Below are positions 4,288 to 53,602 of a stretch of 64,000 bases of DNA, one piece after another. The notes under the pieces are model-generated. The model did no database searches. It was not told the origin of the DNA and saw only the letters and a program-made list of their open reading frames with translations. The position numbers were made by a program, and so were the translations under genes. Source of the stretch: an uncultured Alphaproteobacteria bacterium. Lineage in GTDB: Bacteria; Pseudomonadota; Alphaproteobacteria; JAJTHO01; G963706365. The stretch's first letter is position 1, and each line of letters starts with the position of its first letter. The stretch lies in NCBI GenBank assembly GCA_963706365.1, contig OY970150.1, forward strand, positions 1,596,265 to 1,660,264, read 5' to 3'.

Positions 4288-4377
4288 TTGTCGTAGTGAA
4301 TAATCTTTATTTTTAACAAACGTTTATTGTAAGGACGGGTCAATCAATACGTTTAAAATGACAAGTTGCTTTGGTTT

Positions 4378-4405
4378 ATACGTGGGTTTCCGCGCAAGCG
4401 CTAAA
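4378..4405. repeat. Copy of repeat family A (tacgtgggtttccgcg[c/t]aagc), one arm only, between the convergent 3' ends of maeB and purL
   Basis: tatacgtgggtttccgcgcaagcgct matches the copies near 17181 and 53575. It overlaps the purL stop codon. Confidence 0.6.
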
Positions 4406-6611
4406 GCGTATCAAAAAACGTTTGCTGGTTTGTAATTTCCAAAGTTGTATCATTTAAAATGAAATCTTTTTCTGTAACTCTTCCAATACGCACTGCATCA
4501 ACGGCGGTTATGCCTGCTTCGAGAATAAGTTGATCGGCATCATTGGTGGCTATAATATAAAGCCCCTGATCTTCACCAAACAGGTAAGAATCATTATCAT
4601 TCATATCAAGTTTCATCCCAACTGTAGTGGAGATATCCCTTGGCGCGGCGCGGGATGACAGTAGATTGGCGAATTTTATTAAATGCACTAATAGCCCACC
4701 GGTTGAAACATCATGACAGGCTTTGATGGTGCCTGCTAAAATTTGCTCTTTTACAAATAAGCCGGTACGTTTCTCTACAGGCAGGTTAACGGGGGGCGGG
4801 GCGTAAGTTTCTTTTGTATTTAAAATAAGTTGGCTATAGAGGCTTTGACCTAGCCAACCCTCTACGGTTCGTTGTCCAATCAAGACCAGTTCTTGGCCTA
4901 TGTTTTGAGGCGTTAACTTGTTCGGTGCTGCTTTTTTATAATCCTTAATTAAACCGACACCACCAATTACCGGGGTGGGTAAAATAGCCTGCCCCTCTGT
5001 TTCGTTATAAAGTGAAACATTGCCGGAAACGATAGGGAATTCTAAAATTTCGCAAGCTTCTGCCATTCCCTTAATGCATCCGACAATCTGCCCCATAATT
5101 TCTTTTTTTTCTGGGTTACCAAAATTCAGGTTATTGGTGCAGGCCAAAGGCGTTGCGCCGGTTGTAATAATATTACGCCAGGCTTCTGCCACCGCCTGCT
5201 TGCCGCCTTCAATTGGGTCAGCATAGCAATAGCGTGGGGTACAATCAGTGCACATCGCCAAAGCCTTTTGTGTATCATGTACCCGCACCAAGGCCGCATC
5301 GCCGCCGGAGCCACGTATTGTATTATTACCAACCATACTGTCGTATTGCTCTGCTATCCAGCTTTTAGAAGCAATGTTTGGGTGCGAGAGTAGTTTATTT
5401 AAAACATTTTGAATGTCGTCGTGGGATATCTCCGCTTCGGTCGGGATGACGGGAGGCGGGGAGGGGATTTTATAGTCTCTTTGATATTCCGGTGCTTTAT
5501 CAACTAGTGGCGGCACGGGCATATTGGCTACTTTCTTTCCAAAACGATGCAGTTCTAGGTGATTTGTATCCGTTACCTTGCCAATAACAGCAAAATCTAG
5601 TTCCCATTTCGTGAAAATCGCCTGGGCTTCCTCTTCGCGCCCTGGCTTTAGTACCATTAGCATACGTTCCTGACTTTCTGACAGCATAATTTCCTCAGCT
5701 GCCATATTCTCCTCACGTAGTGGCACAAGATCGAGATTTAATGCCACGCCTACTTCGCCTTTAGACGCCATTTCAACAGAAGAAGAGGTAAGGCCAGCTG
5801 CCCCCATATCCTGAATCGCAATTACTGCATCGGTGGCCATTAATTCTAGACAGGCTTCTAATAAAAGTTTTTCTGTAAAAGGATCACCTACTTGTACAGT
5901 AGGGCGTTTTTCTTCAGAATCTTCGGAAAATTCTGCTGAGGCCATGGTGGCACCATGAATGCCGTCGCGCCCGGTTTTGGCGCCAACGTATACAATCGGG
6001 TTGCCAACTCCTGCCGCCTTGGCATAAAATATTTTGTCGGCATCCGCCACGCCAACGGTCATGGCGTTGACCAAAATATTACCGTTATAAGCCTTATCAA
6101 ATTCGCATTCCCCGCCAACAGTGGGAATGCCCATACAATTTCCATAGCCACCAATACCGGCCACCACACCCGTAATTAGATGGCGGGTTTTTGGATGATC
6201 TGGTTCACCAAAACGTAAGGCATTCAAATTAGCCACAGGCCTGGCGCCCATGGTGAAAACATCACGCATAATGCCGCCAACACCGGTGGCCGCGCCTTGA
6301 AAAGGTTCAATAAATGAAGGGTGGTTGTGGCTTTCTATTTTGAAAACAGCCGCTTGATTATCGCCAATGTCAATAACCCCTGCATTTTCCCCTGGCCCCT
6401 GAATAACGCATTCCCCTGTGGTAGGCAGTGTTTTCAACCAGTATTTAGAAGATTTATAAGAGCAATGCTCACTCCACATTACCGAGAAAATACTTAATTC
6501 GACCAGATTAGGATCGCGCCCTTCATGCTTTTGCATAATTTCGCAGGCAAGATTGTATTCTTCTTCATTCATGCCAAAGGATTGCGCTAGTTCTAGGGAG
6601 ATTGCTGTCAT
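4401..6611 (-). CDS. purL: Phosphoribosylformylglycinamidine synthase subunit PurL (FGAM synthase II)
   Basis: It is 736 aa and reads [19 protein letters not shown]...[17 protein letters not shown]. The AIR-synthase-like domains are present. Confidence 0.92.
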
Positions 6612-6654
6612 GCCGCATACATAATGGATGGGCGGTTATACTGCAAAAGGAAAT

Positions 6655-6700
6655 TAAGAACCAGTCAACTTAGAGCTTACCCCAAAACCCACGTAAGTTC
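6655..6700. repeat. Degenerate repeat copy: family B half-site (aagaaccagtcaact) followed by a family A left-arm-type sequence (agagcttaccccaaaacccacgtaagttc)
   Basis: It matches the left arm of the composite element near 53438-53470 (agagcttacaccaaaatccacgcgcaagttgaa). It lies between the purL start and the stop of the VirB6-like gene. Confidence 0.5.
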
Positions 6701-8139
6701 TAAGCCTTAGATTTACCCGCCCCTGAACTTTTTAAAGCGGATGTTAAGCGTTGGTTATACTGTTTTCTATTAGAAAAGTTTTTCGCTAAGGCGTTGCCCG
6801 CTGCTCCGCCTGTTAAACCATAAGCCGTGCTGGCGATAGTGCCGAACATTTTACTACCCAGCTCAGGAATTTTCAAAGTGTTTGACATGGATAGTGCGCG
6901 ACTGGTTAAGGCCGGTACACCGTCGACCATCGCCTTGCCGAACAGCCCAATTGTTAGCATATAAATTAGTAATTTACTGGCTAAACCTTTGGTAACAATT
7001 TCCTTGCTTTCGTAAACGTTTGCCACGCTGCCATAATCACTGTCGTTAATAACAAACACGATTAAAGCAAAAATGATAGAGACAGCGGCTGCCAAAATAA
7101 CCAGGGTGAAAGCAGAGTGAAAAAGCACTTTTAAGCCAGCGGTGGCAATATTACGGCTGACGGGGAACAGGAAGGCCACCAGCATTACGGGCGCTAAAAT
7201 TGTAATAATCGTCCATTTAAAAACCACATCAATAATGCGAAACGGTATAGCGATCATGATAGAGCCAAAAAAGTACATCATGGCCAAGGATACGGGTAAT
7301 AGAATAGGTCGCTTGGCTTCTTGGGAGCTTTGTTTTTTAAACTGATCCCACGAGTTTTGACTGGCATTACCCTGGCCACCATTATTTTTACCGGTAAATA
7401 AATCAATGCCCATTTTAAGGCCTATGCCAAGAGTTTTGGCGGTCATTTCAACGGTACATTCCAGCTGCGCTATTGCCAGGCTTTCATCAATAGGGTCAGT
7501 ATTGCCAGGATCAGACTGTTTTAATTCTCCGCTGGCTGTTATAAATTGTTCACCACAGGTAATGTCTGCTAGGTCAGGGTCATCTACTAAAGAAGCTGCC
7601 GCTGTCACCATTAATTGTGCTACTCCGGTGCCAGCAGTGGCCACAGATTCATGGATTTTCCATACAATATCCGGGCTGCGGATTAGCAATGCGACAATCA
7701 TTGCCAGTAAAATACGCATCACTATATCATTTAAAACTTTACTGCTGTTGCCCTCCATCGGCCCAAAGGCTGTTAATAGTTTACCGACCTGAAAAAGTAG
7801 CCAGATTACAAGGAAAACAGCCATAAACTCCATTAAATCTTTTTGAAGAATAGCAGATATTGTACGTGCTGATTTTCTGCTTTCCATCGCAATTTCTACC
7901 AAAGATTTCATCCAGGCGCCTTGCACCCAATCTTCTTTTTGTTCAATAACGTAGGCTGTTGCTTTGCGAGCAGGATCTTCTTCTTGCCCAACTATATTTG
8001 CCGGGGCATCCTCTTCCAGCCGGTTAAGAATTCGTTCTCTTTCCAGAAAAATCAGTTCGCCTTCGGCATTACGAGAAACATTATTTTGTGCATGGGCGGT
8101 GCTGAAACAGAATAAAATTAAAAGAAAAAGGATGCGCAT
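6700..8139 (-). CDS. VirB6/TrbL-like polytopic inner-membrane protein (short paralog) with a signal peptide
   Basis: It has a signal peptide (MRILFLLILFCFSTAHAQ) and several TM helices. The block RIIDVVFKWTIITILAPVMLVAF is paralogous to IDALIKWTVISILTPVLAG in the upstream 1365-aa gene. Its start is coupled to the upstream stop (TAATG). Confidence 0.5.
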   Translation of the reverse strand: MRILFLLILFCFSTAHAQNNVSRNAEGELIFLERERILNRLEEDAPANIVGQEEDPARKATAYVIEQKEDWVQGAWMKSLVEIAMESRKSARTISAILQKDLMEFMAVFLVIWLLFQVGKLLTAFGPMEGNSSKVLNDIVMRILLAMIVALLIRSPDIVWKIHESVATAGTGVAQLMVTAAASLVDDPDLADITCGEQFITASGELKQSDPGNTDPIDESLAIAQLECTVEMTAKTLGIGLKMGIDLFTGKNNGGQGNASQNSWDQFKKQSSQEAKRPILLPVSLAMMYFFGSIMIAIPFRIIDVVFKWTIITILAPVMLVAFLFPVSRNIATAGLKVLFHSAFTLVILAAAVSIIFALIVFVINDSDYGSVANVYESKEIVTKGLASKLLIYMLTIGLFGKAMVDGVPALTSRALSMSNTLKIPELGSKMFGTIASTAYGLTGGAAGNALAKNFSNRKQYNQRLTSALKSSGAGKSKA

Positions 8140-11100
8140 TAGCTATCTGATCCTCGGCTAGTGCTGCCTGCCATGGCCGGTTGTTTCGTGCCGGCTGTGG
8201 CGGTTGGTTTGCCAGCGGCAATTCTGTCAGATAAACTTTTGGCCAGGTTAGAATCAGATTTAGTATTGTCTAAGATATCTGTTTTGGCGCGGCGGCTGAA
8301 TGGTACAATATCATTGCGGGCATCTTGCATGTCATCAAAAATAGAACCTCTTTTGACTAAATTACCGGCATCTGCATCGGTGTTTTGTGGTTTCGGGCGT
8401 TCTGCTGTGATGCTGTCCAAGGCCATTTCGCGCTTTTCTGCTTCGCTATAGGCATTAAAGCTGTTGCGGTCTGCTGCGGTGGCGGTGGTTTTTTCCCATT
8501 CCTGTTTTTTAAATACATCGCCTGCGGCATGTCTTGCCCGGTTAGCATGAGCAGCTATATTATCAATTCTTGTGTTGGTGCCGCTGGTGGCTTGTAGGGA
8601 ATCTTTATAGTTATCAGAGACACTTTTCATTTGTGCTTTAATGGCTTGTTTATTGCTGCCAGCAACGCTGCTCATCCCGGCAATGCTTGCCACACCGGCA
8701 GCGGCCAATAAACCAGCGTTAATAGACTGTGTCTGACGATCTTCGCCCACAACATTCATATATTTTTCAACCGCTCTATCCATCTCGGCTTTATATTCTT
8801 TAACACTGCGTATCTCGCTTACATTGGCACTGGCCATGGCTTCAATACGGTCTTTCATGTAATCGTGTCTGCCTGTTGTGTCCTGTGTGCCAGCAACGGT
8901 TGTCGCCATTTTCATACTCGTGGCCTGAATTAAGGCAATATGCGCATTTTTCTCTAGTTCACGTTTTTCTTTACCACTCACAGCACCGCTTTGCAGATGG
9001 TCATTAAATTTATTTAAGCGGTCAATCAATTGATCTACATTTTGGTCATCATCGGCCAGTTGTGCAAGACGGTCTACTTGCTCTTTTTGTGTGGTGGCGG
9101 TGGGTTGGCCTGCGCGTCGCTGGGCATCAGCCATCAAGTTTAAACTTGCGTTCACGGCCTGGCGGCCAACACTTTTTCCTTTTAGAGCCTCGGTGAAATT
9201 ATCCATACCAATTTCACTGCCTAAACCGGCTCCTTCTAGAATATTGTTAGCTACATTCAGGCTTATTAAACCTGTTAATTTGGCGCCTCCCCAAGCAACC
9301 TTACCAGGTGTCACAGACGCAGCAACACTGCCAGGTATTCTTGACAGGCCTTTACCCATGGCACCAAAATATTCTTTGGTGCTGCCTACTTTATCAGCGG
9401 CAAAGGATCCCACCATAATGGCCGCCCCTAACGAAGTATTGATTGCAAATTCAACCACATTAAAGTTCTCAGCGGCATCAAACATATCATTAATCGCCTG
9501 TTTTGCTTCTTCAATTTGTTCCTGCACACGTTCTTGTAGATTGCTGATTTCTTCTTGTTTCTCTTCTTCTGTTACTTCGTTTTGTTGCAGTTCTTGTTCT
9601 TGCAATGCAATGTTTTGCTCGGTCATCTCGTCGATTTGACGATCTGCTTGTTTTAGTTCCTTAGAGGATATTTCGTCTAAAAGCTCATCATTAATTTCAC
9701 CGGCTTCTGCTATGGCTTCGGCATGTTCTGCATCAATTTCATTACCAGCCTGAACGGCATTAATGTTACCACCTGCCAAGGCTGCAACTGTTCCCATGCC
9801 CATACCTGCCATGGCTAGTGTCATAGTTTCTAATAATTCAGCTGCTTCTTCAGGATTTTCTTGCATGGCACGTGCTTGTTCTGCGGTAATACCCATTCCA
9901 GAAAGCTCGAAATCTTGCATAAAGCCATAGCCTTCTTCATAGCGGGGGCCATAACCGGCCGCCGTATCCTCCGTTCGGGGAATAGGTGCCGTAGTGTTGC
10001 CATAAGTTGCATTTTTATCGATGCCTAAGGCATTCGCCATTCCTTCCGGTAGCATAGACTGTGCAAATGGCGTTGCCACCCCGGCAACTGCGCCGCCGCC
10101 CTGTTTTAAGCCACTACCCAATAGCCCCGCCATAGAACCAAAAATCGCCATACCAATACCGCCCAAGGCAGGAGAGCCTAGAATAGTAGAGGTCATCGGG
10201 GCAATGTTTTTCATGGAATGTTTAGAAATTAAACCTGTTGCAAACAACAACCACCAGTCAACATTAGCCATAGAAACAGGCGGTGTTTTTTCTGGGGAGC
10301 CTGCACCGGCAACGCCAACCGCGCCTTCGGCTTGGTTGTAGACGATATCTGTCGGGTTTATTAGGCCGCCATTTAACCGAATCTCAAGGTGCATATGGGG
10401 GCCTGTTCCTATGCCGGTATTCCCAATTAAACCGACAACCGCACCGGCCCCTACTGTTTGACCGGCCGATGATAGTATTTTACTAAGGTGACAATACTTT
10501 GTTTCATACCCATCCTGATGGTCAATTTTAACCATATTACCACATCCACCCCCTACATTTTCAGCTACAAGAATCACTCCGGGTTTCATTGATAATTGTT
10601 TAGCACCAGCATCACAGCCTATATCAATACCGCCGTGGCGTCTGGTGCAATAAGAACGACACGCGCCCCATTTCTGTCCGCCATGCGTTCCGGGGGTACA
10701 CATTGTTTTATAATCATTCGCATCAATAGGAAATGTCCAGCCTGACCCCATAGGAAGTTCGTTTATAAGAGTTCCTGATTCACTACCATCAGCTTGTAAT
10801 AGTGTATCATAATATTCTAGCGTCTCTTTACGGGCATGCGTATATTCATCGACAGCGCCGCTGGCCGCGTAATCCTCGTAAATAGGTAATGCTGCAACAG
10901 GCTCATTCGGGTTAGAAATAGCCGGATCAACGCCATCTTCCACACCGTCTTCCGGTGTTCCATTCTCAGCGGCTTCGGCAGCTTCCGCATTTTCAATTTG
11001 TTCTTTAACGACCTCGGGAAAGGCATTAAACGCACCGGCCAGGGCAGATTCTGCGGTAGTTAAACGAATAACCGCATAGTGCACCATATGGCTTAGCAAT

Positions 11101-12236
11101 ACGGCAATGATGGCGGCAATAATAAAATTTAGGGCGGATTCCAGCACAACCTTGTAACCCAAAACAGCAAATTTTCGGGTAGAAGGGAAACAGGCACAAC
11201 CGGCTAGCACCGGTGTTAAAATACTAATAACTGTCCATTTAATCAGGGCATCAATCACCATCACTGAAAATAACAGGATAGGCAGAATAAACATGATGAT
11301 TAGTAACCCACCGGAAAATTTCCCGTCCCAGCTTCCATAACTACTAAACGTATGTATACCAACAGCCAGCCCATAGGAAAAGGCGCGTTGCAAGGTATGG
11401 ATCTGGCATTCCAGTTTATCCTTCATCAGGTGTTTTTCATTGGGTTCGCCATTAACGGTACTCATGCCCTCTAGGGCGGTTAAGTTAGTTGCATAACAAC
11501 CACGATCCCCTTTGTCCGGGTCAGAGCCCTGGTATCGTGCTTTATAAAGAAGAGAATCCTTTGGGCTGCCTTCTGTAATTATATCATAACCAAAATCAAT
11601 CCCACCACTTACCACCGGTTTATAGACATATTCCCAGTAAATATTATAACCACTGGCTGTAAAAGTGCCGACAACAAACAGAACCAGCATAACACGCACG
11701 AAAATGCTATTGCCGATATTGGCAATGCCGTTACTCGCGCCAAACGGCATCAAAATTTTAATAACCTGCCACATTATCCATAAGGCGAGTATGATGGCCA
11801 ATAGCTGCATAAATTTATCGCCGGCTTTATCCATCATTTCCGGTGGGTAAAGCATGGCCGCGGTAAAAATATGCGCGGCTATGGGGCAGACAAAACAGAA
11901 TTTCGACAAATTACCCTGAATTTCGCCAACAGATTTTTTGGCACCAGGGTCAGCAGCAACCATTTTGGTGCCATCATCACTTTGTGGAGTGCCTGCCCCT
12001 CCGTCTTGTGTTGTACTATCAGCAGGATCTAGCGTAGGGTCTTCCTCTGATGGTGTTTGACTTCCTCTTGTCTCGTTTCCCAGATTACTACCGTCCTGGC
12101 CAGGGTTGGCCGCATCATTATTGGCCTCAACATTATCCTGAGCATAAGCATCGCCAGAAAAACAGAGCATCAAGCAGCAAAAAATAACGAATAAAATGTG
12201 TCTAATCCGATACCTTTCCTGCTCTAAGTGATTCAT
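8139..12236 (-). CDS. Large VirB6/TrbL-like membrane protein with an embedded M23 (LytM-type) metallopeptidase domain and a long Gly-rich and coiled-coil C-terminal extension
   Basis: It is 1365 aa. A signal peptide and an acidic region precede the TM segments. A TrbL-like core spans about aa 110-390. The M23 motifs are HGGID (H-x3-D) and GNTGIGTGPHMHLEI (HxH), at about aa 495-630. Coiled-coil and Gly-zipper segments follow, running from about aa 640 to the C-terminus. Confidence 0.55.
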   Translation of the reverse strand: MNHLEQERYRIRHILFVIFCCLMLCFSGDAYAQDNVEANNDAANPGQDGSNLGNETRGSQTPSEEDPTLDPADSTTQDGGAGTPQSDDGTKMVAADPGAKKSVGEIQGNLSKFCFVCPIAAHIFTAAMLYPPEMMDKAGDKFMQLLAIILALWIMWQVIKILMPFGASNGIANIGNSIFVRVMLVLFVVGTFTASGYNIYWEYVYKPVVSGGIDFGYDIITEGSPKDSLLYKARYQGSDPDKGDRGCYATNLTALEGMSTVNGEPNEKHLMKDKLECQIHTLQRAFSYGLAVGIHTFSSYGSWDGKFSGGLLIIMFILPILLFSVMVIDALIKWTVISILTPVLAGCACFPSTRKFAVLGYKVVLESALNFIIAAIIAVLLSHMVHYAVIRLTTAESALAGAFNAFPEVVKEQIENAEAAEAAENGTPEDGVEDGVDPAISNPNEPVAALPIYEDYAASGAVDEYTHARKETLEYYDTLLQADGSESGTLINELPMGSGWTFPIDANDYKTMCTPGTHGGQKWGACRSYCTRRHGGIDIGCDAGAKQLSMKPGVILVAENVGGGCGNMVKIDHQDGYETKYCHLSKILSSAGQTVGAGAVVGLIGNTGIGTGPHMHLEIRLNGGLINPTDIVYNQAEGAVGVAGAGSPEKTPPVSMANVDWWLLFATGLISKHSMKNIAPMTSTILGSPALGGIGMAIFGSMAGLLGSGLKQGGGAVAGVATPFAQSMLPEGMANALGIDKNATYGNTTAPIPRTEDTAAGYGPRYEEGYGFMQDFELSGMGITAEQARAMQENPEEAAELLETMTLAMAGMGMGTVAALAGGNINAVQAGNEIDAEHAEAIAEAGEINDELLDEISSKELKQADRQIDEMTEQNIALQEQELQQNEVTEEEKQEEISNLQERVQEQIEEAKQAINDMFDAAENFNVVEFAINTSLGAAIMVGSFAADKVGSTKEYFGAMGKGLSRIPGSVAASVTPGKVAWGGAKLTGLISLNVANNILEGAGLGSEIGMDNFTEALKGKSVGRQAVNASLNLMADAQRRAGQPTATTQKEQVDRLAQLADDDQNVDQLIDRLNKFNDHLQSGAVSGKEKRELEKNAHIALIQATSMKMATTVAGTQDTTGRHDYMKDRIEAMASANVSEIRSVKEYKAEMDRAVEKYMNVVGEDRQTQSINAGLLAAAGVASIAGMSSVAGSNKQAIKAQMKSVSDNYKDSLQATSGTNTRIDNIAAHANRARHAAGDVFKKQEWEKTTATAADRNSFNAYSEAEKREMALDSITAERPKPQNTDADAGNLVKRGSIFDDMQDARNDIVPFSRRAKTDILDNTKSDSNLAKSLSDRIAAGKPTATAGTKQPAMAGSTSRGSDS
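10347..10754 (-). other. M23 peptidase catalytic domain within the 1365-aa VirB6-like protein
   Basis: The sequence TRRHGGIDIGCDAG ... YCHLS ... GNTGIGTGPHMHLEIRLNGG is the canonical LytM/lysostaphin-type zinc-binding motif set. Confidence 0.8.
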
Positions 12237-12243
12237 ATCACAT

Positions 12244-12272
12244 ATTTTATATTGATTTTATCAAATTTGCAA
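12244..12272 (-). promoter_or_regulatory. Candidate sigma70-like promoter for the VirB6-like operon: TTGCAA, 17 nt, TAAAAT, ending about 7 nt before the ATG, so the transcript would be leaderless or nearly so
   Basis: On the minus strand the sequence is ttgcaa atttgataaaatcaata taaaat atgtgat ATG. No SD-like sequence precedes the start codon. Confidence 0.25.
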
Positions 12273-12353
12273 CGTATAATAAGTTAATAAGAAAAAGAAA
12301 ATTTTTAAGGTTAAACAGTATTTAGCACATGGAAAGTAATTAGGTGAATTAAA

Positions 12354-12875
12354 ATGGGATGGCGGAATAGGACAAATAGAAATCTGATTGCTAAAGAATT
12401 AGTGAATCGGAGTGACAGAGCGCAAAGGTGGGGTGCTTTTGCTGTTGTTAGTCTAATATCTACATTATCACTTGCTGTTGGTAATTTTACCGGCTGGAAT
12501 ACTTACAACTCAAATCAGCCAAAAAATCCTGATCAGCCTCAACCTGTAGATGTTATTGCCTCAGCGCCGACATTAAATGCTCATATTGAAGTTTTAGAGG
12601 AAAATTTAGAAGCACCAAGGATAGGTGGTTCAAGTACCATGACAATGGATCAAATTAATACGGCTGCAAAGCAGCTAGGATGGTCAACTGATATTGACCA
12701 GAATGCTATTGCTTCAGCAAACGAGACCGATAGCATTAAGACTTCTCCAGTAGAACAAGCACCCAGTGGGTATATAGGCGATATCGCTTTTACTATGCCG
12801 TCATCAGCCACCCCATCTGAAATTAATATGGCAGAATTTTCTATGTTGGTGTTAGGTTCTGGCAGAACAGGCTAA
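12354..12875 (+). CDS. Hypothetical membrane-anchored protein, divergent from the VirB6-like operon
   Basis: It is 173 aa. One N-terminal TM helix (GAFAVVSLISTLSLAVG) is followed by a low-complexity Pro/Gln/Ser-rich region. No recognisable domain. Confidence 0.4.
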   Translation: MGWRNRTNRNLIAKELVNRSDRAQRWGAFAVVSLISTLSLAVGNFTGWNTYNSNQPKNPDQPQPVDVIASAPTLNAHIEVLEENLEAPRIGGSSTMTMDQINTAAKQLGWSTDIDQNAIASANETDSIKTSPVEQAPSGYIGDIAFTMPSSATPSEINMAEFSMLVLGSGRTG

Positions 12876-12922
12876 TAAAACAAACCTCTTGCATCCTAAT
12901 TAAAACTATCTAGGTAAAACAT

Positions 12923-14563
12923 ATGCCTAGTTCTTCACCAATTTTACTAACAGTTGTTGCCGATGGCTTGGGGTATCCATTACAAGACCCGGCCACGGAT
13001 ATGCATGTAAACAGCGCTGTTCGCCCTGACACATGCCCCAATATTTTTCGATTGATACAGCAAGGCAGCACCACTTTGCTGGAAGCTTCTTGCGAACCTG
13101 TTGGTTTGGCGGCTGGCCAAATGGGGGGATCAGAAGGCGGACATGCAACTATTGGCTCTGGCCAGCCCGTAGCGTTGGGCGCCGGCGCAATTGTAGACGC
13201 TTTTAAAAGTGGTGCTTTCGAAAAAAGCGCCCCGATGCAAGATGCTATTAATCATTTAAAAACAATGGGAAAAACCATGCATTTGCTTGGTATTTTATCC
13301 GATGGCGGTGTGCACAGCAATTTAGATGATATCATTAGAACAGCAAAAATATTCGCAGATAAGGGTATTAAGGTTCATGTTCATGGTCTTGCCGATGGCC
13401 GCGATGTTTTTCCCCATTCTGTAAAAACCTATCTACAACAATTTTACGAAGCAACCCACGATAATGATAACATCGAACTGGTTAGCCTTTGTGGTCGGGC
13501 AAAACTAGACCGTGCCGAAAATTGGGAGGTGACCAATAAGCTTATCCAAAATATTTGTACGGCGCATACAAAGACCTGGCATGATGGAATCGAAGCGGCT
13601 GAAGATTTTTATAGTCAATCCAGTGAACCTGATGAACATATGGGGTTTTATGCCTTGAAAGGGCATAGCGGTATTCAGGATGGGGACTGTGTTTTAATTT
13701 GCCATCACCGCCCGGATAGAGTGCAACAACCAGCCGCCGTTTTTGATGGCAATTACAGTGGCTTTACGGAAAAACCCTACGTACCTTTTATACCGCCAAA
13801 AATCCACAGTATTGCTGCCTTTATCCCGCTGGGTAAGGTGTCGGTTCCTTACATCACAGACATCTCTTATCCCCTCCAAACAGTTACTTCCTTATATACC
13901 GATGCTGGGCATAAGGTTTTGAAAGTGGCCGAAAAACAAAAAGGCCCGCATGCAACAGTTTTTTACAATGGCGGCAATATTAAAAAGCATGAGGGGGAAA
14001 CACAAATTATTATAGCTTCCGATAAGGATAATTTTGATCAAAACCCGGCTATGAAAGCGCCGGAAATCACTGAACGCGTTATTGAAGGTTTACAATCGGG
14101 TGATTATAGCCATATTTTTGTTAATTATGCCAACCCAGATATGGTGGGACATACTGGTAATTTAGCAGCCACAGAACAAGCTGTTAAAATTGTTGATGAA
14201 CAACTAGAACGTATCTTAAAAGTTATCCGGCAAATGCAGCAAGAAGTTGTATTAGTATTTACCGCCGATCATGGCAACGCCGAGAAAATGGCGGTTGATG
14301 GTAAAATGCAAACCAGCCATTCTGTAGGTGCTGTGCCCTGTGTGTTTTATAATCGAAAAATTCATGGTAATTTTGATTTCAATACAACGCCGGTTTATAT
14401 TGCTGCCGAGCAGTTGAGAACAGCACAAACAAGATCAATCGCCAATATTGCCGCAACGTCGCTAAAAATTATGCAGGAATTTGGTTTAAATTTACCTATT
14501 CCGGATACAATGGAACCTGCCCTAGATGTGATAACCGAGCAATTTTCCAGGTTGGCAGCATGA
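12923..14563 (+). CDS. gpmI: 2,3-bisphosphoglycerate-independent phosphoglycerate mutase
   Basis: It is 546 aa. Motifs include SDGGVHS, HGLADGRDV, the GHTG metal-binding region and TADHGNAE. Confidence 0.9.
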   Translation: MPSSSPILLTVVADGLGYPLQDPATDMHVNSAVRPDTCPNIFRLIQQGSTTLLEASCEPVGLAAGQMGGSEGGHATIGSGQPVALGAGAIVDAFKSGAFEKSAPMQDAINHLKTMGKTMHLLGILSDGGVHSNLDDIIRTAKIFADKGIKVHVHGLADGRDVFPHSVKTYLQQFYEATHDNDNIELVSLCGRAKLDRAENWEVTNKLIQNICTAHTKTWHDGIEAAEDFYSQSSEPDEHMGFYALKGHSGIQDGDCVLICHHRPDRVQQPAAVFDGNYSGFTEKPYVPFIPPKIHSIAAFIPLGKVSVPYITDISYPLQTVTSLYTDAGHKVLKVAEKQKGPHATVFYNGGNIKKHEGETQIIIASDKDNFDQNPAMKAPEITERVIEGLQSGDYSHIFVNYANPDMVGHTGNLAATEQAVKIVDEQLERILKVIRQMQQEVVLVFTADHGNAEKMAVDGKMQTSHSVGAVPCVFYNRKIHGNFDFNTTPVYIAAEQLRTAQTRSIANIAATSLKIMQEFGLNLPIPDTMEPALDVITEQFSRLAA

Positions 14564-14594
14564 TTTGTCCTAGTTAATGCCTTGTATTTACAAC

Positions 14595-15935
14595 CTATTT
14601 TCCGTTTAGTCTCTCCACAATTTTTTCCCGGCCAATTAAAGGCAATAATACGGGCAGTTCAGGGCCATGCTGTTGGCCTGTTAAAGCTAAACGTAAAGGC
14701 ATAAACAGTTGTTTGCCTTTGCGGCCAGTGGCTTCTTTAAGGGCTGTTGTCCATTCCTGCCAGCTAGCCATATTAATGGTTGTGGGCAATAAATTTGCTG
14801 CCATGGTAATAAATTCTGCATCTTCATCGGCAATGGCGGGCTGAACATCGCCATAGCATATGTGGTGCCATTCTTTAAAGTCATCTATTTTTTCCAGGTT
14901 ATCGCGCACCCCAATCCAGAAAGCTTCATCGGCGTTATCTGGTAATTGATTTTTCACCGCTTCAAAAGGCAATTGATGCACTAGCAAAGCATTAAGGCGA
15001 TTCAGTTCATCCATATCAAAGCGTGGGGTGTTGCGACCATAATTGCTGATATCAAAATCTGCAATGAGTGCGGCCAGGTTTTTTTGTGGCTGCACGGCTT
15101 CACTGCTGCCCAGGTAAGCCAGTAAGCTATTAATCGCCATAGGCAGATAGCCATCTTCTCGTAATTGCTCAATACTAAAAGAGCCAAATCTTTTGGATAG
15201 TCCTTCGCCATCCTTACCGGTTAGTAAAGATAAGTGGCCATAGGTTGGAGGTGTGCCGCCCAAAGCCTGACAAACCTGAATTTGGGCGGCGGTATTAGCC
15301 ACATGATCTTCGCCGCGCAAAACATGGGTAACTTGATGGTCGATGTCATCAACCACAGATGCCAATGTATAAATAGGGCGGCCATTGGCGCGGAATAACA
15401 CAGGATCAGAAAGATTGGCACCGTGAAAAGCAACCGCGCCACGCCCTAAATCTTGCCATTCTATAGGCTCGTGTTCCAGTTTGAAACGCCAATGTGGTTC
15501 CATATCCTTGCTGTTATATTCATCAATCTGCTGCTGTGTAAGCGACAACGCCGCACGATCATAAACGGGTGGCTTGCCGTTATTTAGCTGAATCTTGCGC
15601 TTTAAGCTAAGTTCTTCTGGCGTTTCATAGCAAGGGTACAAACGGCCATTTTTTTTTAATGTTTCAAATGCCCAATCATAGCGATGATCACGGTTGCTTT
15701 GCGCATCCGTTTCATCCCAGTTCAAACCCAGCCAGCCTAAATCGCGCTGAATGGCCTCGGCAAATTCCTGGGTAGAGCGTTCAGTGTCTGTATCATCAGA
15801 TCTTAATAAAAAAACCCCATTTTGCTTGCGGGTAAATAACCAGTTAATAAGGGCAATACGAATATTACCCACATGCAATTTACCGGTGGGTGAGGGGGCA
15901 AAACGGGTTTTTACGGTGGTTGTTGACATATCCAT
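14595..15935 (-). CDS. gltX: Glutamate--tRNA ligase (class I aaRS, GltX family). A glutamyl-Q tRNA(Asp) synthetase-like paralog is less likely at this length.
   Basis: RFAPSPTGKLHVGNIRIAL is the HIGH motif. The sequence LRSDDTDTERST is also present. Length is 446 aa. Confidence 0.8.
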   Translation of the reverse strand: MDMSTTTVKTRFAPSPTGKLHVGNIRIALINWLFTRKQNGVFLLRSDDTDTERSTQEFAEAIQRDLGWLGLNWDETDAQSNRDHRYDWAFETLKKNGRLYPCYETPEELSLKRKIQLNNGKPPVYDRAALSLTQQQIDEYNSKDMEPHWRFKLEHEPIEWQDLGRGAVAFHGANLSDPVLFRANGRPIYTLASVVDDIDHQVTHVLRGEDHVANTAAQIQVCQALGGTPPTYGHLSLLTGKDGEGLSKRFGSFSIEQLREDGYLPMAINSLLAYLGSSEAVQPQKNLAALIADFDISNYGRNTPRFDMDELNRLNALLVHQLPFEAVKNQLPDNADEAFWIGVRDNLEKIDDFKEWHHICYGDVQPAIADEDAEFITMAANLLPTTINMASWQEWTTALKEATGRKGKQLFMPLRLALTGQQHGPELPVLLPLIGREKIVERLNGK

Positions 15936-15950
15936 GTGGTGATACTGGCT

Positions 15951-16382
15951 TTAAAATGGCTTGGCAACGGCTAGAATAACAATCAGGATAAACAGCAGGG
16001 TTGGTACTTCATTTAACAGGCGATAAAATTTACCGGGTCTGCGTAGGCCTTCGGCTAATCTGATGCGTTCTTTACCTAAAAAGCCGTGCAAGGCGGCCAT
16101 GCCCAATACGAGAATAACTTTTAGAATTAGCCATGTCGGCCAAACACCGGCAACAATCTGTGTTATCAAAAATAACCCGAATATAAAGGTTACCAGCATG
16201 GCGGGTGTCATGATGTAGCGAAGCAGTTTATATTCCATAGTTTGCAGCATTTTATCTTGCTCGCTATTTTGCAGGGCGCATTCTGTATGGTAAACATATA
16301 ACCTGGGCAGATAAAACATTCCTGCCATCCAGGAAGTGAAACCAACGATATGGATTATCTTACAGGCAAGATAGAAATTCAT
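15951..16382 (-). CDS. hemJ: Protoporphyrinogen IX oxidase HemJ (CopD-like membrane protein, UPF0093)
   Basis: It is 143 aa and reads KIIHIVGFTSWMAGMFYLPRLYVYH. This is the typical HemJ family signature, with four TM helices. Confidence 0.75.
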   Translation of the reverse strand: MNFYLACKIIHIVGFTSWMAGMFYLPRLYVYHTECALQNSEQDKMLQTMEYKLLRYIMTPAMLVTFIFGLFLITQIVAGVWPTWLILKVILVLGMAALHGFLGKERIRLAEGLRRPGKFYRLLNEVPTLLFILIVILAVAKPF

Positions 16383-16423
16383 TTCATTGATTTAAACACT
16401 TAGGTTGGCTATGAAAAGCTTAT

Positions 16424-17146
16424 ATGAACCAAGAATATACATTTCATATTTTCGACGGTATTGTTTTGGCAGTATTGGCAATTTCTGCTCTGGTTGGCTT
16501 ATCACGTGGTATTGTGCGAGAGGTTTTGGGTATAGGCTGCTGGGTTGTTGCCTTTTTTGCTGCCATTTATGCTTATGACGCGTTTTACCCTTTTTGGACG
16601 GGGGTTATTAGCAACAAAATGGTGGCGAGTGTGGCGGCCTATGCTGTAACGTTTATTGGTGTATTGTCGATTTGCTTGTTACTATCCAGTCAGATTTCTC
16701 GTCGTATTGATGACAGTGAATTGAATTCCCTGGATCGTAGTTTAGGCCTGGTCTTTGGTTTAACGCGCGGTGCTGTTATTATTTGCTTGGGCTATCTAAT
16801 TATCGCCAGCTTTCATGATTCAGAGGAAACCTTACCCGATGCTATTAAAAATGCGCGTACGGTTCCCCTGGTGCAGGATGGCGTACAGGTGATGCTCGCC
16901 TTGTTACCTGATAGCATGAGCCAGGATACCGAAGAAATGGTTGAAGAGCAGCAGAAGGCTTTGGAGGAATTAAAAGCTGTAGATGACAAAGCAGAAAAAC
17001 CTTCTATTACGCCTATTGATCGTAAGCCTGCTGAAAAACCCGTTATCATTTTGAACAAAAAAGAAGAAGCCCCCAAACCAGCAGCCACAACCTACGATAG
17101 CCGAGAGCAGCAGCGTCTGGAACAGTTGATTGAGAGTGTTCAGTAA
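16424..17146 (+). CDS. cvpA: CvpA family (colicin V production) membrane protein
   Basis: The N-terminus FDGIVLAVLAISALVGLSRGIVREVLGIGCWVVAFFAA is typical of CvpA. Confidence 0.8.
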   Translation: MNQEYTFHIFDGIVLAVLAISALVGLSRGIVREVLGIGCWVVAFFAAIYAYDAFYPFWTGVISNKMVASVAAYAVTFIGVLSICLLLSSQISRRIDDSELNSLDRSLGLVFGLTRGAVIICLGYLIIASFHDSEETLPDAIKNARTVPLVQDGVQVMLALLPDSMSQDTEEMVEEQQKALEELKAVDDKAEKPSITPIDRKPAEKPVIILNKKEEAPKPAATTYDSREQQRLEQLIESVQ

Positions 17147-17149
17147 ACT

Positions 17150-17212
17150 ATAGAACCCATTTATTGTCAAATGGGTTCTATACGTGGGTTTCCGCGTAAG
17201 CTCTTATACCTT
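17150..17212. repeat. Composite palindromic element: family C hairpin (tatagaacccat...atgggttctata) fused to a family A copy (tacgtgggtttccgcgtaagctctta), between convergent cvpA and nadE
   Basis: It has a 12-bp inverted repeat with a 10-nt loop, followed immediately by the 24-nt family A motif. Confidence 0.65.
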
Positions 17213-17222
17213 AAAACACTTT

Positions 17223-18062
17223 TCAAAACCGATTAGTAATTGGTAAACGCCAATCTTTGCCAAAACTCATGGAACTTAACTTTACGCCTGGCGGGGCTTG
17301 AAAGCGTTTATATTCGTTGCGGCGTAGCATTTTCCATACTTTTTCTACCGTAGCAGGGTTATGGCCGTAGGTCGCTATTTCATCTGGGCTTAAACTTTGC
17401 TCAATAAAGCCTTTTAAAATACTATCTAGTTCTACATAGTCAGGCAGGCTGTCACTATCTTTTTGATCAGGTTTCAATTCCGCAGAAGGGGGACGGTCTA
17501 TAATGCGTTGCGGGATAACCTCCTTATCGCGATTTATCCAGCGGCACATTTTGTATACATCCGTTTTATAAAGGTCTTTTATCGGGTTATACCCGCCGCA
17601 CATATCACCATAAAGGGTTGAATAGCCTACAGCCATTTCTGATTTGTTGCCAGTGGTTAGCAGCATGACACCCGTTTGGTTGCTGATAGCCATTAAAAAT
17701 AAGCCGCGCAGCCGAGATTGAATATTCTGTGCCGTAATATCGGTTAATGTGCCTAACACTGGTTCTAAACTTTTATTGGCGCTTTGCATGCTGTCTTCAA
17801 TAGGAACCGTGTCTAGTTTTACATGCAGATTTTTGGCAAGCGCAGCGGCATCTTCTAGACTAATTTGCGAAGTATACGGGGAGGGCAGCATAATGCATCG
17901 AACATTTTCTGGCCGCAAGGCGTGCGCCGCTAAGGTTGCAACCAGCGCAGAATCTACCCCGCCGGAAAGCCCCAGAATAACCTGTTGGAAATTGTTTTTC
18001 CGGCAGTAATCCTTTAAGGCCAGAACAATAGCATGATAGTAGTTTTCGATTATTTTTGACAC
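17223..18062 (-). CDS. nadE: NH3-dependent NAD+ synthetase
   Basis: ILGLSGGVDSALVATLA is the PP-loop SGGxDS motif. Length is 279 aa. Confidence 0.9.
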   Translation of the reverse strand: MSKIIENYYHAIVLALKDYCRKNNFQQVILGLSGGVDSALVATLAAHALRPENVRCIMLPSPYTSQISLEDAAALAKNLHVKLDTVPIEDSMQSANKSLEPVLGTLTDITAQNIQSRLRGLFLMAISNQTGVMLLTTGNKSEMAVGYSTLYGDMCGGYNPIKDLYKTDVYKMCRWINRDKEVIPQRIIDRPPSAELKPDQKDSDSLPDYVELDSILKGFIEQSLSPDEIATYGHNPATVEKVWKMLRRNEYKRFQAPPGVKLSSMSFGKDWRLPITNRF

Positions 18063-18126
18063 GCTGTAGTATAATCCTTGGGGTGACGTTGTTATGCCGT
18101 GATTATAAAATAATTCTATAAAGATT

Positions 18127-18546
18127 CTACAGTTTCATAACACTGTTGCTCCATTCTTCTTTAAGTGCTTCTTGTTGTTTATCGACAATCACTAAGCGGC
18201 GTTGAATAATTTTGCGTTGAATAGCTTTTACAACCACCGGAACAGTGAAAACCACTAGCCAGCCAATACCGGCATAGCCATAAATAATTAGCCATGTTAA
18301 GCTGTCGGAAACCACCTTCATACCGGCATCCATATCTTGCCCTATGGGAATGAGATCCATCATATAAGGTACAATGCCGGCCATATTAAAAAAAGCGACA
18401 GTTTTAGGAATACTTCCGTTGCTGCGCGTGTCGCTAAATTTGGCGGCCAATGTTGGCACCAGGCCAATGAACAGCAAAATGGCCGCGGGTATAGACGCCA
18501 CGGCAATCATGATAACTAGTAGTAGAATCAGTATATTACTTTTCAT
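18127..18546 (-). CDS. Small hypothetical inner-membrane protein, translationally coupled to the upstream kinase-like gene by a 4-nt overlap
   Basis: It is 139 aa with 3-4 predicted TM helices. It has no recognisable domain. Confidence 0.4.
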   Translation of the reverse strand: MKSNILILLLVIMIAVASIPAAILLFIGLVPTLAAKFSDTRSNGSIPKTVAFFNMAGIVPYMMDLIPIGQDMDAGMKVVSDSLTWLIIYGYAGIGWLVVFTVPVVVKAIQRKIIQRRLVIVDKQQEALKEEWSNSVMKL

Positions 18547-20558: not shown

Positions 20559-20620
20559 GCTTCACTTTAGCAACAAAATGTTAACTAAAGAGTTACGGTA
20601 ATTTATATGTTGTTTTTAAA

Positions 20621-21397: not shown

Positions 21398-21413
21398 TAA
21401 TTATTAGGAAGCA

Positions 21414-21480
21414 CTTATAGAACCCATTTGACAATCAATCGTACATTAATTGTCAAATGGGTTCTATACATGGTTTAGCC
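21414..21480. repeat. Family C palindromic element, full copy: 20-bp perfect inverted repeat tatagaacccatttgacaat / attgtcaaatgggttctata with a 12-nt loop, followed by a degenerate family A sequence (tacatggtttagcc). It lies between convergent genes.
   Basis: The stem is perfect. The 17150 copy is the same element with the inner left arm deleted. Confidence 0.7.
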
Positions 21481-21481
21481 A

Positions 21482-26005: not shown

Positions 26006-26096
26006 AATTAAAGGTGTTTTATCAAAACTTGAACGCTTAAATCATAGCTTTTTCTTCCCCTGGCCAGTGATTCTGATTTAAGGCTAACCTTAACAC

Positions 26097-26143
26097 TTAG
26101 AACCAGTCACCTAAATCACAAGTTTTAGGTGACTGGTTCTTAA
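26097..26143. repeat. Family B palindromic element: 17-bp perfect stem (agaaccagtcacctaaa / tttaggtgactggttct) with an 8-nt loop. It could act as a factor-dependent or bidirectional terminator after the 25562..26005 gene, but no U-tract follows.
   Basis: The inverted repeat is perfect. Partial copies lie near 6656-6670, 55875-55891 and 60185-60203. Confidence 0.6.
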
Positions 26144-51257: not shown

Positions 51258-51345
51258 GCAATCCGTGCAGTCTGCCGTTCGCATTGCTGCAATTTTGCAT
51301 GCAGCGGCACAAGCCCTGTTTAATGCAGATAGTGGGGGATAAGGC

Positions 51346-51361
51346 TTAAGTGTTACTTAAC
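51346..51361 (+). promoter_or_regulatory. CtrA-box-like site TTAA-N7-TTAAC (ttaagtgttacttaac), about 25-40 nt upstream of divK
   Basis: It matches the alphaproteobacterial CtrA consensus exactly. In Caulobacter, divK is CtrA-regulated. Confidence 0.5.
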
Positions 51362-51383
51362 TTAACAATACTATAGTGTTTAT

Positions 51384-51761: not shown

Positions 51762-51762
51762 T

Positions 51763-53151
51763 ATGTCTGGGCGCGTCTTAATTGTTGATGATATTGCACA
51801 AAACGTCAAGTTGCTGGAAGCCAAGCTATCAGCAGAATACTTTGATGTTATTAGTGCTACGAACGGCGAGGATGCCTTAAAAATAGCCGAAGAACAGTTG
51901 CCGGATATCATTTTGCTGGATGTGATGATGCCGGGAATGAATGGGTTTGAGGTTTGTGAGCGGCTGAAAGAAAATAAGGCAACAAGACAAATTCCTGTGG
52001 TGATGGTAACAGCGTTAAGTGAAACGGAAGATCGTGTAAAAGGCTTGCAGGCCGGTGCAGATGAATTTTTAAGCAAGCCTGTAAGAGATATTCCTTTAAT
52101 GGCGCGTGTGCGTTCCTTGGTGCGACTAAAAAGTTTGCTAGATACCTTGCAAATTAGAGAGGGCAATACCGGAGATATAGATTCGTTTCAGCGGGAAGAA
52201 GACGAGCCGTTAGCCGCAAATATTGCCTTTGTCAGTGATGACCGCATTGCTTCTAGACAATTTAAACGTATTTTAGAGGAAGATGGCCATCATCTGAAAG
52301 TTTTTGATACTATCGATGAATTAAAGCAGTATATGGCCGAATTCCATGATAGCAGTATGGGGGTAGACTTGGTTATCAGCCTTTTACATATTAATGGTCA
52401 GGAAATATTACGCGATTGTGTAGGCCTAAGAAATATGGAATACAGCCGACACACCCCAGTTTTGTTAGTGGCGGAAGAGGAAGACGAGCAGCTGTTGGCA
52501 AAGGCGCTAGAGATTGGCGTTAGTGATTACATTATGCGGCCTGTTGATGGACATGAGTTGCTGGCACGGGTTCGCACCCAACTAAAACGTCTACGCTATC
52601 AACAACGCCTGAAACGCACCTACCGTCGATCCATCAAAATGGCGCTAACGGATGATTTAACCCGCTTATATAATCGTCGTTACTTTAATATGTACATGAA
52701 CGATTTGCTGACTAAATCTTTAGCAACCAATAAATCGGTTAGTTTATTACTTATTGATATTGATAAATTTAAAAATGTTAATGATACCTATGGCCATGAT
52801 GTGGGGGATCGTGTGTTGCAGGTAACTGCAGAGCGACTGCGTAATAGTGTAAGGGATTGCGATTTAATCGCACGCCTGGGTGGAGAAGAATTTATCGTTG
52901 TCATGCCTGATTCACGCATAGGGCTGGGGGTTGATGTGGCAGAGCGCTTACGCCACGCCATGGAAAGCCAACCCATTGAAATAAGGCAGGCAAATGGCGA
53001 GCCGCTATCTTTACAAATAACCATCAGTATTGGCATTTCCTGTAGTAGAACGGTGCAGAATGCGACACGCGATGTTTTATTAAAGGTAGCTGATGATGCC
53101 CTTTATCAAGCTAAAAATTCTGGCCGAAATTTAGCTGTAGTGGGCACCTAA
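51763..53151 (+). CDS. pleD: Response regulator and diguanylate cyclase PleD (two receiver domains plus GGDEF). The start is at MSGRVL; the ORF track begins at 51673.
   Basis: Two receiver domains are followed by a GGDEF domain (RLGGEEFIV). The divK-pleD synteny is preserved. Confidence 0.85.
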   Translation: MSGRVLIVDDIAQNVKLLEAKLSAEYFDVISATNGEDALKIAEEQLPDIILLDVMMPGMNGFEVCERLKENKATRQIPVVMVTALSETEDRVKGLQAGADEFLSKPVRDIPLMARVRSLVRLKSLLDTLQIREGNTGDIDSFQREEDEPLAANIAFVSDDRIASRQFKRILEEDGHHLKVFDTIDELKQYMAEFHDSSMGVDLVISLLHINGQEILRDCVGLRNMEYSRHTPVLLVAEEEDEQLLAKALEIGVSDYIMRPVDGHELLARVRTQLKRLRYQQRLKRTYRRSIKMALTDDLTRLYNRRYFNMYMNDLLTKSLATNKSVSLLLIDIDKFKNVNDTYGHDVGDRVLQVTAERLRNSVRDCDLIARLGGEEFIVVMPDSRIGLGVDVAERLRHAMESQPIEIRQANGEPLSLQITISIGISCSRTVQNATRDVLLKVADDALYQAKNSGRNLAVVGT

Positions 53152-53245
53152 CTTATACTATATTTATAAGCTTATCTATATGTCATAGAGTAAACTTAGC
53201 TAAAAGCAGAGTATATTCCTCTAACAATTATTTACAGGAGTATAT

Positions 53246-53416
53246 ATGCTTAGTTGGGCTTTGACATTTTTCATTTTAGCAATTATTGCCGGTGTTCTCG
53301 GTTTTACGGGGATTGGCGGCGCCTTAAGTCAGGCTGCTATTATTTTATTCTGGGCTTTTGTAGTACTGTTGATTGTTTCCGCTGTGGCAAACGTAGTTCG
53401 TGGTAAAAAGCTGTAA
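53246..53416 (+). CDS. DUF1328 (UPF0391) small membrane protein, 56 aa. It is below the size cutoff of the ORF track.
   Basis: atg at about 53246 is preceded by aggag. The translation is [56 protein letters not shown], the typical DUF1328 sequence. Confidence 0.6.
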
Positions 53417-53435
53417 TTTTCCTTTCTTTTTTAGC

Positions 53436-53602
53436 TTAGAGCTTACACCAAAATCCACGCGCAAGTTGAATTTCGTCTTTTTCGCTGCAAATTCCTTTGA
53501 AAAAGATGCGAAATAGCCCGCTATTCCGCCCTTTCCCAAAGGAATTTTCGTAGAAAAATACTTCTTTCAACTTGTACGTGGGTTTCCGCATAAGCTCTTA
53601 GA
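53436..53602. repeat. MITE-like composite palindromic element of about 165 bp. Two family A-type arms of about 33 bp in inverted orientation flank an internally palindromic core.
   Basis: The left arm is agagcttacaccaaaatccacgcgcaagttgaa. The right arm is ttcaacttgtacgtgggtttccgcataagctctta, its imperfect reverse complement. Inner inverted repeats are aattcctttg / caaaggaatt and cgtcttttt / aaaaagatgcg. Confidence 0.7.

Follow-up and report, generated by a model that had tools for sequence, protein, structure and literature searches.

A probable mosaic family of REP/REPIN-like palindromic repeats at gene 3' ends of an uncultured alphaproteobacterium

The 64,000-nt stretch of DNA analysed here, hereafter the window (contig OY970150.1 of an uncultured alphaproteobacterium, positions 1,596,265 to 1,660,264), contains eight or nine loci of short palindromic repeats, which extend over 56 kb, lie in spacers unrelated to each other and have flanks that show no similarity. 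The repeats are built from three modules, A, C and D, which occur singly or in different combinations, and all of them are non-coding and lie 0-90 nt past a stop codon, none being placed inside an open reading frame (ORF) except for a doubtful 14-mer at 55875-88. They constitute a true family of the repetitive extragenic palindrome (REP) or MITE (miniature inverted-repeat transposable element) kind, beyond what chance would produce. With moderate confidence, they are regarded as a lineage-specific, non-autonomous mosaic family whose modules share an outer end and which resembles REPs, REP doublets forming hairpins (REPINs) and bacterial interspersed mosaic elements (BIMEs). An original prediction, made from the DNA letters alone, had cited five of these loci; all five exist and carry related sequences, with close to zero module matches expected by chance, while module D and its loci are an addition to that set.

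The window is ~95% coding, with 3.2 kb (5%) of non-coding DNA, and its content is alphaproteobacterial housekeeping DNA, including genes for PleD, a split PurL, NadE (nearest homologue 60% identical), RecA, Mfd, release factor 2, malate dehydrogenase and others. The source genome is small, at 1.87 Mb.

Three modules with a common outer end

Module A is a 26-nt sequence, TACGTGGGTTTCCGCGTAAGCTCTTA, present in five copies. Three of these, A1 (4379-4404), A2 (17181-17206) and A3 (53575-53600), all on the plus strand, match with at most 3 mismatches, against 0.00 matches expected from dinucleotide-preserving shuffles. The other two, A4 (6669-6697) and A5 (53435-53464), are diverged inverted copies on the minus strand. 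When the window is searched with nhmmer, a profile built from the five copies finds these and no others (E 2.7e-8 to 7.6e-7); the match ranked after them has E=2.3. Copies A2 and A3 are identical at 25/26 positions. Module C consists of a 20-mer, TATAGAACCCATTTGACAAT, whose exact arms occur three times (0.02 expected) and match at 20/20 positions between separate loci. It forms two hairpins in the window, a full one at 21416-21468, which has the 20-nt perfect arms and loop (here 13 nt) originally described for it, and a shortened one at 17149-17182, which equals the full hairpin with its centre deleted, the left arm being cut to 14 nt (TATAGAACCCATTT) and the right arm left intact. Module D, TTTAGGTGACTGGTTCTTAA, has four matches with at most 3 mismatches (0 expected), and is represented in the window by four to six copies or fragments. 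The modules are arranged as follows.

Locus 1, 4368-4408: A1 (plus strand), a profile match, within a weak outer stem GCTTTGG/CTAAAGC
Locus 2, 6654-6705, minus strand: module D termini around a module A interior, reading CTTAGAAC, then A4 (TTACGTGGGTTTTGGGGTAAGCTCTAAG), then TTGACTGGTTCTTAA
Locus 3, 17149-17207, plus strand: shortened C hairpin (13-14 bp stem) fused to A2
Locus 4, 21416-21478: full C hairpin (20-nt perfect arms, at most 24 RNA pairs), then an 11-nt module A stub, TACATGGTTT
Locus 5, 26096-26143: full D hairpin, CTTAGAACCAGTCACCTAAA-loop-TTTAGGTGACTGGTTCTTAA, with a 17-bp stem, 48 nt in all
Locus 6, 53432-53604: the 173-nt element, A5 (minus strand), a palindromic core and A3 (plus strand)
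Locus 7, 60187-60206, plus strand: solo D arm TTTAGGTAACTGGTTCTGAG, 17/20 identical
Locus 8, 30822-30849, plus strand: reduced D derivative, TTAAGAAC-GCC-TAGGTGACTGTTTTTAA
Candidate, 55875-55888, minus strand: D-arm fragment GTTACTGGTTCTTA, 13/14 identical, where the stop codons of a convergent pair overlap

The candidate fragment is weak and may be due to chance, because 0.57 such matches are expected by chance in the window.

The mosaic character of the family is evident from three combinations: C joined to A (locus 3), D ends around A (locus 2), and A-core-A (the 173-nt element). Fusion of C and A had been proposed for both loci 3 and 4; it is present at the former, while at the latter the A part is reduced to the 11-nt stub, which is missed by the A profile. 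Locus 2 has the same ends as the D hairpin (CTTAGAAC...GTGACTGGTTCTTAA, 8 nt on the left and 15 nt on the right) with module A as its interior; its D arm is a single arm at 6654-6673, beside A4, and on the plus strand the locus contains a 12-bp stem, CTTAGAGCTTAC/GTAAGTTCTAAG. The outer ends of locus 3 are TATAGAAC ... GCTCTTATA. In the 173-nt element, two 74-nt arms with 73% complementarity are separated by 25 nt, and inverted A arms surround a palindromic core, as had been reported for 53436-53602. Its ends, TAGCTTAGAGCTTAC... and ...TAAGCTCTTAGATA, form terminal inverted repeats of ~27-36 nt, and it lacks coding capacity, the sole ORFs being of 38-64 aa without homologues.

Direct reading of the ends, made post hoc but consistent over the three module types, gives a common form, yTWAGArC...GyTCTWAr.

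Module C: TATAGAAC
Module D: CTTAGAAC / TTAAGAAC
Module A: CTTAGAGC / CTAAGAGC / ATAAGAGC; most diverged copy TTTAGCGC

Since every module starts alike from the outside, all loci, whether simple or composite, are framed by these short inverted ends.

Conservation of sequence and of fold

Copies A1-A3 hold a 6-bp hairpin, ACGTGG/GTTT/CCGCGT, and in locus 3 that of A2 is formed in RNA on its own (ACGUGG/GUUU/CCGCGU). This hairpin is absent from A4 and A5, and module A is therefore conserved as a sequence and not as a fold of its own. Together with the near-identity of the copies, this points to common descent or sequence-specific recognition and not to selection for a fold.

Sequence-specific recognition could also mean that module A and the TWAGARC ends are putative sites for a DNA-binding protein (a nucleoid-associated protein, gyrase, integration host factor (IHF) or a regulator), kept as organising or regulatory sites. 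The conservation of module A independent of pairing, the short palindrome TAAG-CT-CTTA within it, and the single end motif common to all modules are each consistent with such sites. Comparison by eye with operator consensus sequences gave no match to those of CtrA, FNR/CRP or IHF, and the repeats follow genes instead of occupying promoter spacers, being found in 0/7 divergent spacers; a protein-site origin is accordingly judged improbable.

Placement at gene 3' ends

The orientation of genes around the loci was taken from the ORF map of the window. Repeats occupy 4/5 of the non-overlapping convergent spacers (the vacant one is 14564-14594) and none of the seven divergent ones, while the loci outside convergent spacers follow the upstream gene of a tandem pair. 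This upholds the gene 3'-end location originally proposed, although not its count of four convergent sites among the five loci then cited: three of these (4379, 17150 and 21414) are convergent, while the locus at 6655 lies between minus-strand genes and that at 53436 between plus-strand genes. The ends of elements contain or adjoin three TAG stop codons, those at 4401-4403 and 6700-6702 being inside and that at 21482-21484 abutting. REPs show the same placement, between convergent and unidirectional ORFs near the 3' end, and their termini likewise supply TAG stop codons (PMC3733652).

Locus 1 lies between the convergent malic enzyme gene (plus strand) and purL (minus strand), whose TAG stop codon sits within the end of A1. 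Locus 2 is flanked by two minus-strand genes, a VirB6-like gene, whose TAG stop codon falls inside the locus, and then purL. The spacer of locus 3 is convergent (cvpA-like, plus strand, versus nadE, minus strand), as is that of locus 4 (a DUF5765 gene, plus strand, versus a glycosyltransferase gene, minus strand, whose TAG stop codon directly abuts the repeat). Locus 5 lies 90 nt past the stop codon of a 147-aa gene, both flanking genes being on the plus strand. The 173-nt element starts 16 nt past the stop of a DUF1328 gene, with a response-regulator gene 78 nt beyond its end, again both on the plus strand. Locus 7 lies 7 nt past the stop codon of an Smr-domain gene, upstream of mfd. Locus 8 fills a 25-nt convergent spacer between an aminotransferase gene (plus strand) and a pyridine nucleotide-disulphide oxidoreductase gene (minus strand), and the last bases of this D remnant supply the stop codon of the minus-strand gene (30846-30848).

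Hairpins and the terminator question

Folding on both strands, as the original prediction had suggested, yielded stable hairpins.

C+A2 (locus 3): -24.8 kcal/mol, z -4.7
Full C hairpin: -32 / -36 kcal/mol, z -8 / -9
D hairpin: -34 kcal/mol, z -6.4
173-nt element: -69 (plus) / -81 (minus) kcal/mol, z -8.4 / -9.1, one continuous hairpin
Locus 2: plus strand, 12-bp stem, z -3.7; transcribed minus strand, z -1.4
Locus 1: z -1.9

These folds, and the placement of the repeats, bear on an explanation in which the repeats are selected functional RNA hairpins, acting as U-tract-independent bidirectional terminators or 3' mRNA stabilisers in the manner of plastid 3' inverted repeats, with one good solution having been reused. 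The distance of every locus from a stop codon (0-90 nt), the occupation of 4/5 open convergent spacers and the stability of the stems on both strands (z -4 to -9) agree with it. No match to Rfam was found in the window at gathering thresholds, and the sole match at E<=1, which also agrees with such a role, is that of the C hairpin (21414-21471, minus strand) to the plastid ccsA-ndhD 3' untranslated region (UTR) hairpin family, from a pair of convergent genes; this match is weak and sub-threshold (28.7 bits versus a gathering threshold of 51.5, E=0.16). The resemblance is almost certainly a structural coincidence, though the role of the plastid hairpin is functionally analogous.

The features of classical termination are missing. 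None of the repeat hairpins is directly followed by a U-tract, and a terminator scan of 4000-22000, which covered loci 1-4, flagged none of them, at variance with the bidirectional terminators originally suggested. By direct reading, the T-run directly 3' of loci 1, 3, 4 and 5 is never longer than 3-4; on the minus strand of locus 2 a U-rich stretch starts 9 nt past the stem, and the 173-nt element is followed by a T8 run, but 18 nt downstream. By contrast, a canonical hairpin and T-run terminator is present at 58631-58648 on the minus strand (CCCCGGGGTTTCTCGGGG), after the small gene 58657-58926, and the organism thus does use canonical terminators. In addition, a function in RNA would require structure and not sequence identity of 20/20 or 25/26; loci 1, 7 and 8 and the A stub at 21469 fold poorly yet retain the sequence; and both locus 2 and the 173-nt element fold worse on the strand transcribed from the upstream gene. 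Selection for RNA hairpins is therefore considered an unlikely source of the family. Selection at the RNA level on the 173-nt element was also sought in its G·U asymmetry and rejected, as the wobble-compatible mismatches (6 versus 3) favour the non-transcribed minus strand and the difference is not significant.

The small gene next to the canonical terminator belongs to a minus-strand cluster (56584-58926) that encodes a four-cysteine signal-peptide protein (58657-58926), an MbnB/DUF692 protein (57748-58587), an HvfC/DUF2063 protein (57024-57758) and a DoxX protein (56584-57027).

Copies, mobility and a mobilising enzyme

The reading of the repeats as a dispersed, mobilised family predicts copies outside the window. 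Short-read contigs of the same sample in Logan (run ERR12040027) hint at such copies. Logan contigs stop from opposite sides inside the C/A2 junction of locus 3 (at 17192 and 17167) and inside the 173-nt element (at 53491 and 53544), two of about seven breaks thus falling in A-containing elements, which make up ~0.65% of the region (chance ~1e-3, a rough estimate); other breaks are in genes. The breaks suggest further copies elsewhere in the genome, a reading that fits better than a hairpin artefact because neither the perfect hairpins at 21416 and 26096, which are stronger, nor locus 2 interrupts a contig. No Logan contigs were found for the purL and DUF5765 genes.

Several observations weigh against this interpretation. 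The breaks could instead reflect strain heterogeneity, one contig being just 98.1% identical to the window, and the centre of the 173-nt element lies midway between its two breaks, which could come from a drop in coverage over the inner hairpin. No copy is present in the flanking DNA outside the window that was reached through Logan contigs of the edge genes (2.1 kb and 3.5 kb, 5.6 kb together), where ~0.7 would be expected at the density of the window. No second genome with the repeat family was found in the genome, metagenome and viral collections scanned. The 173-nt element has one full-length copy in the window, and the target-site duplication sought around it is at most TA (TA/TA at 53432-33 and 53603-04), which may equally be part of the inverted repeat. 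The window genes covered by Pfam or NCBIfam scans include no transposase, REP-associated tyrosine transposase (RAYT) or integrase.

The scans of public collections, which do not include the source genome, had the following results. The pattern ACGTGGGTTTN6AAGCTCT gave 12 single chance matches among genome contigs, in unrelated metagenome-assembled genomes (Planctomycetes, cyanobacteria and others); TACGTGGGTTTCCGCNNAAGC gave one chance match among metagenome contigs, on an unrelated contig without other similarity; and scans of viral contigs for modules A and C gave nothing. Neither the 51-aa ORF of the 173-nt element nor a 971-aa six-frame concatenation of all loci had any match in a set of 5.8 billion proteins, and a blastn search of the element against a plasmid database for a parent insertion sequence (IS) returned only noise at E=6. 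No direct repeats were found flanking the other loci, and a literature search by repeat sequence string returned nothing relevant. Two kinds of candidate were considered and discarded: the unannotated 147-aa and 139-aa proteins beside loci 5 and 3 as possible RAYTs, as they have no HUH/Y motifs and no Pfam match, and resemblances of the ends to those of IS66, Tn3, enterobacterial repetitive intergenic consensus (ERIC) and Correia sequences, as these are unaligned coincidences of 6-8 nt.

Some of the same results would suit a purely local origin, in which the repeats are a peculiarity of this 64-kb region produced by a few old segmental duplications or by gene conversions between nearby spacers. 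The lack of a copy in the 5.6 kb of flanking sequence and in the public collections, and the lack in protein space of any ORF overlapping other copies, agree with it. Against it stand the eight or nine loci over 56 kb in unrelated spacers with dissimilar flanks, and the contig breaks within two A-containing elements; moreover, with one locus every 7-8 kb or so, only those ~0.7 copies are expected in the 5.6 kb, most of which is coding. There is little probability, in our assessment, that the family is confined to the region.

The central 52 nt of the 173-nt element (53492-53543) are absent from both flanking Logan contigs, which could be due to a coverage drop, to copies elsewhere with a variable centre, or to flip-flop inversion of the core. 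The contigs also differ from the window in two genes. A dihydroxy-acid/6-phosphogluconate dehydratase, which is represented in the window by two overlapping ORFs (64-603 and 543-1052), is one intact 570-aa gene in a Logan contig (1479-3191), suggesting strain heterogeneity or an assembly frameshift; this is the contig 98.1% identical to window positions 1-3002, the other contigs being 99.9-100% identical. The 1002-aa ORF at 26276-29284, without a Pfam match, corresponds to two genes (221 and 779 aa) in a Logan contig (1514-4521), and as the two sequences are one mismatch and one gap apart, a frameshift in one of the two assemblies is indicated.

Comparison with known repeat families

The REP super-families carry an unpaired GTAG or CGTC, or a close variant, at one end of the palindrome, and measure 20-40 bp with a stem of 6-13 bp and a short loop; those of the CGTC type, which include RPE-4 and RPE-6 of the Rickettsia palindromic elements (RPEs), have an AT-started stem of 8-9 bp and a CCA tail (PMC3733652). 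According to Di Nocera et al. (PMC3733652), several REP families coexist per genome, and some inverted repeats, similar to terminal ones, are composites in which a degenerate REP is fused to a stem-loop unrelated to it. REPINs are two inverted REPs making a long hairpin, with singlets as remnants, and are mobilised by RAYT tyrosine transposases (PMC3116915, PMC3337134). Shared with these families are short extragenic palindromes that occur singly or as an inverted pair folding into a single long hairpin, the presence of several sub-families in one genome, the 3'-end placement, the TAG stop codons supplied by termini and the lack of a convincing target-site duplication. The C+A locus resembles the REP composites, and the 173-nt element, with its inverted A5 and A3 in one hairpin, resembles a REPIN, of which it is a single example.

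In other respects they differ. They carry no GTAG or CGTC tag, the ends TATAGAAC, CTTAGAAC and CTTAGAGC being paired within the stem, and because an unpaired GTAG or CGTC is lacking they do not belong to the tagged REPs. Module A has CGTG, without the AT-started 8-9 bp stem and CCA tail of CGTC REPs. The stems, at 13-24 bp, are longer than the typical 6-13 bp, and AT-richer; within the REP size range are the shortened C hairpin, which is 34 nt long with a stem of 13-14 bp, and the 6-bp hairpin of module A, while the full C (53 nt, 20-24 bp) and D (48 nt, 17 bp) hairpins exceed it. REPIN-RAYT systems have a single-copy RAYT gene (IS200/IS605-like Y1 transposase) with REPs on its flanks; no RAYT gene was seen in the window.

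BIMEs of E. coli are mosaics of palindromic units and short motifs, with IHF, gyrase and Pol I as partners. The present repeats are alike in being extragenic, 3'-located mosaics whose units vary in order and orientation, and unlike in that the sequences are unrelated, the host is different, and the motifs of BIMEs have defined protein partners.

Bacterial MITEs, covered by two reviews (PMC3184786, PMC10969869), include the Neisseria Correia elements (NEMIS), with which the 173-nt element shares terminal inverted repeats, a non-coding character, an intergenic site, and ends beginning TA...TAG that would allow a TA duplication. The differences are the lack of a demonstrable target-site duplication, the failure to find a parent IS with matching ends in the window or the plasmid database, the presence of one full-length copy in the window, and the fact that most loci are simple hairpins or solo arms not bounded by terminal inverted repeats. 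Of the MITE-like element originally proposed, the inverted repeats are thus borne out on a 173-nt element, and no convincing duplication was found around it.

The term 'RPE-like' of the original prediction holds as an analogy only, because every copy here lies outside genes. Both are palindromic repeats of an alphaproteobacterium with a reduced genome; in-frame insertion into ORFs is known for RPEs, and the CGTC tag is absent here. Plastid 3'UTR inverted repeats and intrinsic terminators are similar as stable stem-loops directly past stop codons, often common to convergent genes. They are defined by structure (and, in the case of terminators, by a U-tract), whereas here the sequence itself is repeated and no U-tract is present.

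Other features of the window

Two adjacent VirB6/TrbL-like genes are encoded on the minus strand at 6700-12236, and an M23 peptidase domain is also present in the larger one (1365 aa). Type IV secretion loci of Rickettsiales typically contain several large VirB6 paralogues, and the pair offers a hint about the lineage or the lifestyle behind the 1.87-Mb genome. Near nadE, a 671-aa protein (18543-20558, minus strand) has a weak partial match to protein kinases, below the Pfam cut-off, and its gene overlaps that of a 139-aa membrane protein of no family (18127-18546, minus strand). An apparent 255-nt structured intergenic region at 38254-38508 belongs to release factor 2, of which it forms the N-terminal part; it contains the classical signal for +1 programmed frameshifting at ~38318-38333 (AGGAGG, spacer, CTT TGA C), followed by the ORF 38509-39351 with the PCRF and RF-1 domains.

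Proposed origin and significance

For the mosaic family favoured here, the following course may be proposed. Units bounded by the common ends would have spread along the chromosome, either through an enzyme whose gene lies elsewhere in the genome or through recombination or gene conversion among the copies, and would persist only where they are least harmful, which in a 95% coding genome is directly past stop codons. Later decay, through palindrome-centred deletions and module swaps, would leave half-copies and stubs. The 173-nt element, with two inverted A units and a core, would be the most complete form, like a REPIN or MITE, and the solo A and D arms would be remnants. As a by-product, transcripts would receive very stable 3' stem-loops, which probably shield mRNA 3' ends or hinder convergent read-through; this effect at the RNA 3' end is likely a consequence of the repeats and not the cause of their sequence likeness.

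A bolder version of this reading is that a single mobilisation system, not described so far, acts on all three modules in a deep-branching alphaproteobacterium with a reduced genome: an untagged REP/REPIN-like system, recognised through paired TWAGARC/GYTCTWA ends, with swapped interiors, which fills nearly every open convergent spacer as a bidirectional 3'-end structure free of a U-tract. At present it is quite doubtful, and is offered as a speculation.

The repeats imply no new kind of biology, since their placement, hairpins, supply of stop codons and mosaic decay are already documented for REPs and BIMEs. If confirmed genome-wide, they would add to the catalogue of REP/REPIN/MITE-like elements a modular family that lacks the tag and comes from an alphaproteobacterial lineage with poor sampling, and would serve to type strains and to mark assembly breakpoints in the source genome. 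They may also help explain how convergent genes are terminated or insulated from each other in a genome that is 95% coding.

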